A DNA stretch of 49,711 bases from Actinomycetota bacterium (GTDB taxonomy: Bacteria > Actinomycetota > UBA4738 > HRBIN12): the NCBI GenBank assembly GCA_036555125.1, contig DATBLY010000013.1:1-49711 (forward strand), written 5' to 3'. Under the pieces are notes generated by a model. The model saw only the letters and a list, made by a program, of their open reading frames with translations, searched no databases and was not told the origin of the DNA. The position numbers and the translations under genes are program-made. Positions 22,905 to 27,725 of this stretch are shown piece after piece (the stretch's first letter is position 1; the number at the start of each line of letters is the position of its first letter).

Positions 22905-24839
22905 ATGCAGGACGGGCTCACGCGACTCACCGAGCCGATGGTCCGCGACGACGGCGTGCTGCGCGTCGCCACCTGGGACGAGGCGCTCGATCGCGCCGCG
23001 GCCGGGCTGCGCGCCGCCACGGAGCGGAACGGCGGCAACGGGGTCGGCCTGTTCAGCTGCTCGAAGGCCACGAACGAGATGAACTTCGTCGCACAGAAGT
23101 TCGCCCGTCAGGTCTTGCGCAGCAACAACATCGACAGCTGTAACCGCACCTGACACGCGCCGAGCGTGGTCGGTCTGGCCACGGTGTTCGGTGCCGGAGG
23201 CGGTACCAGCTCATACGGAGAGGTCGAGGAGACGGACCTCATCCTGCTCTGGGGGTCGAACGCGCGCGCCGCGCATCCGATCTTCTTCCACCACGTGCTG
23301 AAGGCGATCCACCGCGGCGCACGGATGATCGCGGTCGACCCCCGGCGGACGGAGTCGACGGAGTGGGCGGACCTGTGGCTGGGGATCGACGTCGGCACGG
23401 ACATCGCCCTGTCGAACACGATCGCGCGCGAGATCATCGTGAACGACCTCCAGCACCACGCGTTCGTCGAGGGCGCCACGACCGGCTTCGAGGCGTACCG
23501 CGACTCCGTGATGGACTGGACCCTCGAGCGCGGCGAGGCCGTCACGGGCGTCCCCGCCGAGGCGATCCGCGAGGTCGCGCACGCCTACGCGAGGGCCGAC
23601 CGCGCCGTGATCTGCTGGACGCTCGGGATCACCGAGCACCACAACGCCGTCGACAACGTCCTGTCGCTGATCAACCTCAGCCTGCTGACCGGTCACGTCG
23701 GACGCTACGGCAGCGGGGTGAACCCGCTGCGCGGCCAGAACAACGTGCAGGGCGGCGGCGACATGGGCGCGATCCCGAACAAGCTGCCCGGCTTCCAAGA
23801 CATCGAGCGGGACGCCGACGCGCGCGCCCGCTTCGAGGCGGCGTGGGGCGTGCCGATCACGCCGCGGTACGGGTGGCACCTCACGCAGATGTTCCTGGCG
23901 ATGGAGCGCGACGAGCTCCGCGCCGTCTACGTGATCGGCGAGAACCCCGTGGCCTCCGAGGCCGACAACCAGCACGCGAAGCACCTGCTGGAGACGCGCG
24001 ACTGCCTGATCGTGCAGGACATCTTCCTGACGCAGACGGCCGAGATCGCCGACGTCGTGTTCCCGGCCTCGGCCTCGTGGGCCGAGAGCGAGGGGACCGT
24101 CACGAACAGCGAGCGGCGCGTGCAGCGCGTCCGCAAGGCGCTGGACCCACCCGGGAACGCGAAGGACGACATCTGGATCATCGCGCGGCTGGCGGAGCGG
24201 CTCGGCGTGGACTGGGGCGAGGTCACGGCGGCGAGCGCGTGGGAGGAGCTGCGCACGCTCTCGCCGATGCACGCGGGGATGAGCTACGAACGGCTCGAGG
24301 CGCTCGGCGGCCTGCAGTGGCCGTGCCCGGACGAGTCGCATCCGGGCACGACGTTCCTGCACGGGCGCCTCTGGGCGTTCGACGATCCGCGGGCCCAGGG
24401 CACGAAGGCGCCGTTCAGTGTCGTGGTCGACGACCCGCCGGTCGACGCGCTGTCGCCCGAGTACCCGATCCGGCTGACCACGGGCCGGCGTCTGGACTCG
24501 TACAACACCGGCGTGCAGAGCGGTGGCTACACGTCGCCGTTGCGGCGGCCGGAGTCGATCGAGCTCTCCCCGGAGGACGCCGCCGAGCTCGGCGTGGGCG
24601 AGGGCGAGCGCGTGCGGGTGTCGTCGCGGCGCGGCTCGGTCGAGGCCCCGGTCCACGTGACCCCGTCCGTCCGTCCCGGCCTCGCGTTCATGACGCTGCA
24701 CTTCCCGGACCAGGTCGAGACGAACCGGCTCACGATCGAGGCGACCGATCCGAAGTCGGGCCCCGCGGAGTTCAAGGCGACGGCGGTGCGCGTGGACAAG
24801 CTGTCGGAGCGAGCCGCGGTCACGGGTCGCGCCGAGTGA
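22905..24839 (+). CDS. fdhA: Formate dehydrogenase catalytic (Mo/W-bis-MGD) subunit, selenocysteine-containing (TGA at 23151..23153 read as Sec). It lacks the N-terminal Fe-S domains.
   Basis: Track ORFs 22887..23153 and 23166..24839 are in the same frame, separated only by TGA + HAPS. Read-through gives FVAQKFARQVLRSNNIDSCNRT-U-HAPSVVGLATVFG, matching the FdhF Sec region. Downstream come NPLRGQNNVQGGGDMGA and the rest of the MopB and C-terminal barrel regions. ATG 22905 is preceded by AAAGGAG. Confidence 0.88.
23165..23183 (+). promoter_or_regulatory. Candidate bacterial SECIS hairpin
   Basis: CGUGGUC-GGUCU-GGCCACG: a 7-bp stem (one G-U pair) with loop GGUCU, starting 11 nt after the UGA. 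E. coli fdhF has the same spacing and the same GGUC loop core. Confidence 0.6.
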
Positions 24840-24849
24840 GGGAGGCCCG

Positions 24850-26730: not shown

Positions 26731-27725
26731 GCGATCCCGTCCCGGTCGCGCCGCCCCGCCGCCTGATCGACCTCGAGGTCGACGGGCGCGCCGTGCGGGT
26801 GCCGGAGGGGGACACGATCCTCGCCGCGTGCCGGGCCGAGGGGGTCGACACGCCGACGCTGTGCTTCGCCGACAACCTCACGCCGGTGAATGCCTGCCGG
26901 GTCTGCGTCGTCGAGGTCGAGGGTTCTCGCGCCCTCGTCCCCGCCTGCTCGCGCGCCGCCGAGCCCGGGATGGTCGTGCGGACCGACACGGATCGGGTGC
27001 GGCACTCCCGCAGGCTCGTGCTGGAGTTCCTCGCCTCGAGCGTCGACGTCGAGCTCACGTCGCCCGAGGTGCACCGGTGGATGGAGGCGTACGGGAGCGA
27101 CCCCGACCGCTTCGGCGCGCGGATGGACCCGCGGCCCGCGGGGGAGCGCGACGCCCGTGGGCCGGGACATCACCACGCGCCCGAGCCCGCCGTCGCCGAG
27201 ACCGTCGAGCAGCCGGTCAAGATCGACAACGAGCTCTACGTGCGCGACTACTCGCGCTGCATCCTCTGCTACAAGTGCGTCGAGGCGTGCGGGGTCGATG
27301 CGCAGAACACCTTCGCGATCGCGGTGGCGGGGCGGGGATTCGACGCGAGGATCTCGACGGAGTATGCCGTTCCGCTCGGCGAGTCCGCCTGCGTCTACTG
27401 CGGGAACTGCATCGGCGTGTGCCCCACGGGCGCGCTGATGTTCCGCACCGAGCACGAGATGCGCGAGGACGGCACCTGGGACGAGGCGGAGCAGACCGTG
27501 ACCGACACGATCTGCCCGTACTGCGGCGTGGGGTGCGAGCTCGAGCTCCACGTGCAGGACGACCGGATCGTGAAGGTGACATCGCCCTGGGACAACGACG
27601 TGACGAACGGGCACCTGTGCATCAAGGGGCGCTTCGGGTACGCGTTCGTCCAGGCCCGCAAGGGCGACGATCCCGCCGCCCGGAAACGGCGCGATCGGAG
27701 CCCGGGAGGCGGAGGGGGAACCTAG
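26727..27725 (+). CDS. Fe-S module corresponding to the N-terminus of an FdsA/NuoG-type FDH alpha subunit (2Fe-2S, His-ligated 4Fe-4S, 2x[4Fe-4S] ferredoxin, MopB-type 4Fe-4S)
   Basis: LCF...ACRVCVVEV...PAC; CILCYKCVEAC...CVYCGNCIGVCP; ICPYCGVGCELELHV...GHLCIKGRFGY. GTGA overlap with the upstream gene. The gene ends right where the catalytic domain would begin. Confidence 0.88.
   Translation: MSDPVPVAPPRRLIDLEVDGRAVRVPEGDTILAACRAEGVDTPTLCFADNLTPVNACRVCVVEVEGSRALVPACSRAAEPGMVVRTDTDRVRHSRRLVLEFLASSVDVELTSPEVHRWMEAYGSDPDRFGARMDPRPAGERDARGPGHHHAPEPAVAETVEQPVKIDNELYVRDYSRCILCYKCVEACGVDAQNTFAIAVAGRGFDARISTEYAVPLGESACVYCGNCIGVCPTGALMFRTEHEMREDGTWDEAEQTVTDTICPYCGVGCELELHVQDDRIVKVTSPWDNDVTNGHLCIKGRFGYAFVQARKGDDPAARKRRDRSPGGGGGT

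Follow-up and report, generated by a model that had tools for sequence, protein, structure and literature searches.

In a 49,711-nucleotide contig of a soil Actinomycetota bacterium (the window, meaning the whole stretch of DNA analysed), the alpha subunit of a formate dehydrogenase (FDH) is encoded as two separate proteins on either side of the diaphorase gene. Four genes, all on the + strand, occupy positions 22905-28383 (Table 1): a catalytic subunit, a NuoE-NuoF fusion (NuoEF), an iron-sulfur (Fe-S) subunit and a MobA-like protein. The first three most probably specify, with a likelihood that we put at roughly 85%, one cytoplasmic NAD(P)+-linked enzyme of the FdsABG/MeFDH1 kind, with selenocysteine (Sec) at a Mo/W-bis-pyranopterin guanine dinucleotide (bisPGD) site and with its alpha subunit present as two polypeptides. 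Sequence comparison supports a division of an FdsA/Fdh1A-type alpha subunit at the boundary after its FS0 [4Fe-4S] domain. Because the two halves are encoded separately and the split falls after FS0, the cluster nearest the Mo/W site is carried by the other polypeptide, and with the order catalytic-NuoEF-Fe-S the locus is permuted, both as a first-pass annotation of this DNA had proposed.

The evidence for the split comes from domain content, profile positions and alignment. The catalytic protein has only two Pfam domains, PF00384 (E 8.3e-67), whose match starts at residue 7 with the first profile position, and PF01568 (E 9.3e-29), and the Pfam search found no Molybdop_Fe4S4 domain (PF04879) in it; the catalytic gene thus comes first in the locus and without a 4Fe-4S domain of its own, as had been claimed. 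Such a domain might still have been sought upstream of 22905, but just 12 in-frame codons separate the previous stop from the catalytic ATG (the stop-to-stop frame begins at 22869). Moreover, among related loci, which were collected from one genome per species (560 relatives, of which the best 80 loci were fetched), tblastn gave a single Fe-S match per locus, except for a second, conventional fused gene in the Limnocylindrales locus L078. Given this short space and the single match per locus, there is no hidden FS0 domain ahead of the catalytic gene. When the Fe-S and catalytic proteins are concatenated, an alignment suggested in the first pass, they form one collinear match to Rhodobacter capsulatus FdsA (6tg9_A residues 25-931, E 6.5e-167) with one break, after FS0, and the junction of the halves lies between FdsA residues ~303 and ~308. 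The NCBIfam Fdh-alpha model (TIGR01591) is parted likewise: its positions 1-51 match residues 261-311 of the Fe-S protein (53.6 bits) and its positions 52-672 match residues 6-630 of the catalytic protein, which alone scores 631.8 bits, under the equivalog cut-off of 666.25. The FS0 domain and its neighbouring Lys, a feature that Fdh-alpha proteins have on the same chain as the Mo/W site, are therefore on a different chain here, and the NuoG-like Fe-S N-terminus that is fused to the FDH module in FdsABG and Fdh1AB is a gene of its own, with NuoEF in between. One detail of the original description has to be corrected: the Fe-S gene does not end exactly at the split point but runs on for ~25 aa as a non-conserved, variable tail.

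Most likely the split, permuted layout has been inherited within a tight family that is found today in several soil phyla. The best 80 of the 560 loci are from metagenome-assembled genomes (MAGs) labelled Actinomycetota, Acidobacteriota, Chloroflexota, Dormibacterota, Planctomycetota and others, and all 68 that hold the three genes have them on one strand in the order catalytic-NuoEF-Fe-S; the genes are contiguous save in about ten Chloroflexota loci, where 0.6-3.5 kb of unrelated genes separate the catalytic and NuoEF genes. In each of these 68 loci the Fe-S open reading frame (ORF) ends 7-38 aa past KGRFG, and the NuoEF stop and Fe-S start usually overlap as ATGA or GTGA. The best 120 clusters of Fe-S homologues (76-93% identity) range over 310-392 aa, all but one falling within 310-344 aa, and their Pfam sets all end in PF04879. 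Identity within the family is 67-93% across phyla and drops to 36-46% towards the nearest fused alpha subunits. Two kinds of seemingly different architecture were set aside, namely apparent NuoF-Fe-S fusions among representative matches, which are fragmentary singletons, and apparent stand-alone Fe-S proteins of ~360 aa, which are fused Sec-FDH alpha subunits cut at the UGA by gene callers and end in ...NNIDxCARL. The plasmid collection gave only fused FdsA-type relatives at <38% identity and no cultured carrier.

The family also seems to be in use, since soil metatranscriptome contigs match all three genes, some of them spanning the TGA and hairpin described below. At three short, conserved stretches of the operon (23524..23931, 25972..26175 and 27196..27399), word depth in soil metagenome and metatranscriptome contigs reaches hundreds to ~1800, against ~10-20 in the flanks. 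The gene family seems to be present and expressed in many related organisms of the same soils.

The catalytic gene stands as first delineated, but its frame is interrupted by a TGA that had been passed over without comment. On comparative evidence this TGA is a selenocysteine codon. The active-site pair, in the motif NRT-U83-H84-APSV, aligns with Cys386-His of FdsA and is kept in 66/66 loci, and TGA stands at the Sec position in every one of the 66 related loci where the motif is readable. Arg276 lies in PLRGQNNVQG, a stretch that is identical in R. capsulatus FdsA in the alignment. In the selenocysteine insertion sequence (SECIS) downstream of the codon, the apical loop GGUCU is invariant among 56 distinct sequences and each of the six upper-stem pairs is preserved in 55-56 of them, while pair 18-30 is G-C in 15 sequences and C-G in 41, a switch made by synonymous substitutions on both sides of the pair. 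With the T of TGA as nt 1, GGTCT occupies nt 22-26, the register of Escherichia coli fdhF, whose sequence was confirmed in 5419 E. coli genomes.

An in-frame stop in DNA that is probably MAG-derived, with another MAG (L001, 92-93% identity) as closest relative, could also be taken to mean that a fused alpha gene was broken and shuffled, whether by misassembly or as a decaying pseudogene inactivated by the TGA. Against this, order and boundaries are identical in all 68 three-gene loci, a set that covers several phyla and many studies, and each junction is crossed by contigs of four independent soil/peat metagenomes (22315-23000, 24749-25139, 26502-27252 and 27396-28400). In addition, the TGA recurs in 66/66 loci together with a covarying SECIS, the G+C content of third codon positions is 0.91-0.96 on either side of it, and the high identity noted above is maintained across phyla. 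Misassembly or decay is thus refuted for practical purposes, and both the check for a rearrangement and the survey of related genomes, as suggested in the first pass, favour a genuine gene order. The 'joints' seen when contigs were laid over the locus are 20-30-nt side matches of short Logan contigs and not rearrangements.

The Fe-S subunit retains most of the clusters of FdsA, although not all that had been assigned to it. The [2Fe-2S], the two [4Fe-4S] and the MopB-type [4Fe-4S] modules are borne out by Fer2_4, two Fer4 motifs and Molybdop_Fe4S4, whereas the His-ligated [4Fe-4S] module is not: Pfam gives no PF10588 match in this protein, and ligands equivalent to FdsA His117/Cys121/Cys124/Cys130 (cluster A4) are absent from all 120 family members. 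The nearest fused relative, P0226, has these His/Cys ligands. Relative to the full FdsA set, the ligands of [2Fe-2S], A2, A3 and FS0 are thus present and only those of A4 are missing, and the 16 ligand Cys of the retained clusters ([2Fe-2S], two [4Fe-4S] and FS0) are invariant in 120/120 members. In R. capsulatus FDH (RcFDH), A4 lies at the dimer interface and is not part of the main electron path (PMC7171172); the split family would have lost this off-pathway cluster. The His-ligated cluster is replaced by a conserved insert (..VHRW..Y..PERFGA.M..ERD.R.PGHHH.P..; 27000..27230, aa ~95-165) whose GHHH-containing sequence may form a new interface or metal site, and AlphaFold assigns low confidence to residues 131-170. 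An extra Cys35 is specific to the family (119/120 members). FS0 is predicted to be held by Cys263/266/270/298, and beside it, on the same Fe-S polypeptide, is Lys300, which is nearly invariant in the family and equivalent to Lys44 of E. coli FdhH (C298-I-K300-G vs C42-L-K44-G), a residue that FdhH needs both to be active and to keep its active structure stable (PMC12176258). The predicted fold of the whole subunit (predicted local distance difference test score 77.6) matches the N-terminal ~300 aa of FdsA, and also MeFDH1 alpha, HydA of bifurcating hydrogenase and the 75-kDa subunit of complex I; all listed fold targets are chains of 571-951 residues in which this module is only the N-terminal part.

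As the first-pass annotation stated, a single NuoE+NuoF fusion gene follows the catalytic gene. Its product has the Pfam domains 2Fe-2S_thioredx (NuoE), Complex1_51K, SLBB and NADH_4Fe-4S (NuoF), matches TIGR01959 (nuoF) and TIGR01958 (nuoE) in NCBIfam, and retains the NuoE-like [2Fe-2S] ligands Cys112/117/151/155 and the NuoF [4Fe-4S] ligands Cys552/555/558/601. Alongside these Cys motifs it carries GAGAYICGEETAL, so that the NuoF-like site for flavin mononucleotide (FMN) and NADH and the NuoE-like part are both present, and its PDB relatives include the FDH beta subunits 6vw7_B, 7e5z_B and 6tg9_B. A GGGAGG stands 4 nt ahead of its TTG start, and the GTG start of the Fe-S gene overlaps its stop as GTGA; the gaps between operon genes are 10, -4 and 40 nt.

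One may argue that two systems are interleaved here, with NuoEF and the Fe-S protein forming a HoxFU/HndCD-like diaphorase of a hydrogenase, or the Fe-S protein being a NuoG fragment, while the catalytic protein acts by itself or has a partner encoded elsewhere. The public names of the Fe-S protein, which are generic ('HndD', 'YjgC', '2Fe-2S cluster-binding protein'), hint in this direction with the first two, and its top NCBIfam scores are indeed for hydrogenase, HoxU and NuoG models, but all of these are far below the cut-offs. We regard such an arrangement as very improbable. The Fe-S protein ends with Fdh-alpha positions 1-51 and the catalytic protein starts at position 52; it is the Fe-S protein that carries the FS0-adjacent Lys on which FDH activity depends; and the catalytic protein lacks a cluster through which it could pass electrons on. 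The constant strand and order in 68/68 loci likewise speak for one unit, and no hydrogenase gene occurs among the window genes scanned, the neighbours of NuoEF and the Fe-S gene being the FDH catalytic gene, fdhD and mobA, without hydrogenase or nuo genes. Membership of the Fe-S gene in a different complex, a doubt that had been raised earlier, therefore finds no support, as the gene always lies next to NuoEF, is usually translationally coupled to it and holds the missing Fdh-alpha positions.

The maturation genes lie at different distances from the operon. The first-pass annotation had fdhD and mobA flanking the locus, and the MobA-like gene does follow the Fe-S gene, as it does in 35/80 related loci. 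The fdhD gene is near but not adjacent: it lies 2.4 kb upstream of the catalytic gene, with three opposite-strand genes between (VIT1, RDD and one unknown). An fdhD relative is linked in 43/80 related loci, and in close relatives such as L006, L007 and L019 it is directly upstream of the catalytic gene.

If the three proteins form one FDH, the C-terminal FS0 module of the Fe-S protein would dock non-covalently on the catalytic protein and complete its domain I, also supplying Lys300 in trans. Since Lys300, whose equivalent is required in FdhH, arrives with the FS0 module, the catalytic protein is expected to be inactive alone. Formate would be oxidised at the Sec83-Mo/W-bisPGD site with the help of His84 and Arg276, and electrons would pass from Mo/W to FS0, the two [4Fe-4S] clusters, [2Fe-2S], the NuoF [4Fe-4S] cluster, FMN and finally NAD(P)+, a path modelled on RcFDH (PMC7171172). 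FdhD and MobA, encoded nearby, would mature the cofactor. The one-complex reading, the docking and the electron path all derive from homology with solved FDH structures.

The same complex could run in other ways, as a CO2 reductase in vivo or on a substrate other than formate, for example in the manner of a nitrate reductase. Metal-dependent FDHs are reversible (PMC7171172, PMC13397495), and NasC/NasA models score strongly in part. Upstream of the FDH locus, at 12348..17277, two GCV_T (aminomethyltransferase-like) genes sit side by side on the + strand and a formate-tetrahydrofolate ligase gene (PF01268, E 1.9e-241) is on the - strand; these one-carbon genes fit formate assimilation and formate oxidation alike. 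We nevertheless consider another chemistry or direction unlikely. The Sec-His pair together with the Arg of LRGQNNVQG is the FDH signature (PMC8808070), Fdh-alpha is by far the best NCBIfam model for the catalytic protein (397 bits being reached by NasC, whose cut-off is 1100), and FdhD, the linkage of which is given above, is an FDH-specific sulfurtransferase. The direction of the reaction in vivo is not revealed by sequence.

Several observations weigh against a selenocysteine-containing, three-protein FDH of this kind. First, the three-protein complex is a prediction from gene sequences. Second, folded as a single sequence, the SECIS region is no stabler than shuffled sequence (z -0.67; the DNA is 72% G+C), and Rfam holds no SECIS family matching 23100..23260 even at permissive E-values; with no Rfam model and non-distinctive folding, the SECIS call rests on the comparison of the 56 sequences. 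(The operon has no Rfam match at gathering scores, and the sole match returned, to mir-19, was judged a chance one.) Third, no tRNA-Sec, selA, selB, selC or selD gene lies within the 49.7-kb window; in an Anaerolineaceae MAG (L057), tRNA-SeC (- strand) and selD (+ strand; TIGR00476, 330 bits) are immediately upstream of the split operon, at 442..1843. Fourth, the metatranscriptome contigs are short and partly from relatives, and DNA carry-over is possible. Finally, both FdhF of the hydrogen-dependent CO2 reductase (HDCR) and FdhA of methanogens give the catalytic part a somewhat better score than FdsA does, and this leaves the ancestry of that part within the cytoplasmic FDHs unsettled.

Among the known enzymes closest in design is FdsABG(D), the NAD+-dependent Mo-FDH of R. 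capsulatus and Cupriavidus necator (6TG9/6TGA, 6VW7). Once the halves are joined, the modules and their linear order are the same, as are the predicted main electron path (FS0, two [4Fe-4S], [2Fe-2S], NuoF cluster and FMN) and the nearby FdhD/FdsC-type maturation gene. In contrast to FdsABG, the split family has its alpha subunit as two polypeptides encoded on both sides of the diaphorase gene, supplies FS0 and its Lys in trans, uses Sec in place of Cys386 as ligand, lacks A4 (His117/Cys121/124/130) and has NuoE and NuoF fused; the operon genes lie too close together for an fdsD-like gene to fit between them, none having been searched for elsewhere, and identity is only ~35-45%. FDH1 of Methylorubrum extorquens (Fdh1A/Fdh1B; 7E5Z, 7VW6) is likewise soluble and NAD-linked, and pairs its alpha subunit, aligned here over residues 63-979, with one NuoF-like beta subunit of 572 aa. 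We take this beta subunit to be a NuoE+NuoF fusion as well, with no FdsD in the enzyme, and the metal ligand of Fdh1A is presumably Cys. Fdh1A is one chain of ~990 aa with tungsten according to the PDB entry, whereas the present enzyme is split, permuted, Sec-containing and without the His-ligated cluster.

A FDH-like MopB unit made of two polypeptides that reassemble non-covalently is found in formylmethanofuran dehydrogenase (FwdB/FwdD). There the cut is near the C-terminus, FwdD being domain IV, and the FS0 cluster remains with the metal site; in the split family, by contrast, the cut is right after FS0 and the proximal cluster is borne by the other polypeptide. E. coli FdhH (fdhF; 1AA6) and HDCR FdhF (7QV7) share the Sec-His active site and a highly similar catalytic part, and E. 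coli fdhF also has the SECIS GGUCU loop at the same distance from UGA and, in FdhH Lys44, the equivalent of Lys300. FdhF, however, carries its own N-terminal FS0 on the same chain and is partnered by ferredoxin-like subunits, not by a NuoEF diaphorase. All the metal-dependent FDH structures matched have the proximal 4Fe-4S cluster and the Lys on the chain of the Mo/W site. Searches of the open literature turned up no account of an FdsA-type FDH that is split or permuted; most subscription journals were outside their scope, and this is absence of evidence only.

The present gene order is compatible with an origin by tandem duplication of an alpha-beta operon followed by differential loss: the first copy would lose its Fe-S half, and the second its catalytic half and beta. 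This compatibility comes from the clean break, with neither overlap nor gap relative to FdsA and FdhH, and from the alpha-then-beta order of the fused genes in L078. The latter, a Limnocylindrales MAG, has a conventional fused alpha gene (~33-46% identity) plus a NuoF-like gene at 9517..14492 on the - strand, a few kb from its split operon, and thus combines both architectures in one genome. No duplication intermediate was seen among the best 80 of the 560 loci, and P0226, on a 4.6-kb contig with a GltD/Nfn-like partner, is uninformative on the origin of the split.

A more speculative idea, which we rate as doubtful, is that the split and swapped order act as a selenium checkpoint and maturation device. 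The UGA is at codon 83 of the first gene, compared with ~360-390 in fused alpha subunits, and failed Sec insertion would free only an 82-aa peptide and not a cluster-bearing truncated alpha subunit that could poison the diaphorase. Polarity from the UGA might also lower downstream NuoEF and Fe-S expression, and a cluster-free catalytic protein could acquire and sulfurate its cofactor by itself and only then dock to FS0 and Lys300. The case is circumstantial, built on Sec in 66/66 loci, the catalytic gene being first in 68/68 and the usual coupling of NuoEF and Fe-S genes. Fused Sec-containing relatives, on the other hand, exist as well and speak against a need for the split.

The family has implications beyond this locus. 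It indicates that the FDH unit can be cut after FS0 and still stay under strong selection, and it offers a natural experiment in which the first electron-transfer step and a second-sphere Lys are supplied in trans, as well as a modular template for engineering CO2-reducing FDHs. Gene callers truncate the catalytic gene at the UGA, and the catalytic protein alone is below the Fdh-alpha cut-off; together with the generic names of the Fe-S protein, this means that annotation-based surveys could miss the split family.

Table 1. Features of the split formate dehydrogenase locus, in window coordinates.
Feature	Position	Strand	Remarks
fdhD-like sulfurtransferase/chaperone gene	19633..20472 (start approximate)	+	PF02634 FdhD-NarQ, E 2.8e-65
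Shine-Dalgarno-like GAAAGGAG of the catalytic gene	22890..22898	+	6 nt before ATG 22905; read from sequence
FDH catalytic subunit, 644 aa including Sec83	22905..24839	+	ATG start; PF00384 and PF01568 only
In-frame TGA, predicted selenocysteine codon	23151..23153	+	motif DSCNRT-U-HAPSV
Predicted SECIS hairpin	23158..23193	+	upper stem 23166..23171 / 23177..23182; apical loop GGUCU 23172..23176
NuoE-NuoF fusion, 626 aa	24850..26730	+	TTG start; 2Fe-2S, FMN/NAD(P)H site, 4Fe-4S diaphorase
Stand-alone Fe-S subunit, 332 aa	26727..27725	+	Fer2_4, two Fer4 motifs, Molybdop_Fe4S4 at aa 257-309
MobA-like molybdenum cofactor guanylyltransferase gene	27766..28383	+	PF12804; best NCBIfam matches are MobA models, all below cut-offs

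Other genes of the window are of separate interest. After mobA and a gene of the metallo-beta-lactamase fold, 29422..31707 encodes a 437-aa P-loop protein that matches cobW weakly and falls in no NCBIfam family, and a carbamate kinase that scores above the cut-off of TIGR00746; 21-25 related actinobacterial loci have this pair in the corresponding place after their FDH operon. A very large ORF at 6..3770 on the - strand, which continues past the window start, has at least 11 Calx-beta repeats. A thiamine pyrophosphate riboswitch (RF00059, 57.3 bits) at 40284..40396 precedes a thiamine-phosphate synthase (TMP-TENI) gene, and a tandem pair of phosphofructokinase-family genes occupies 32823..35036.

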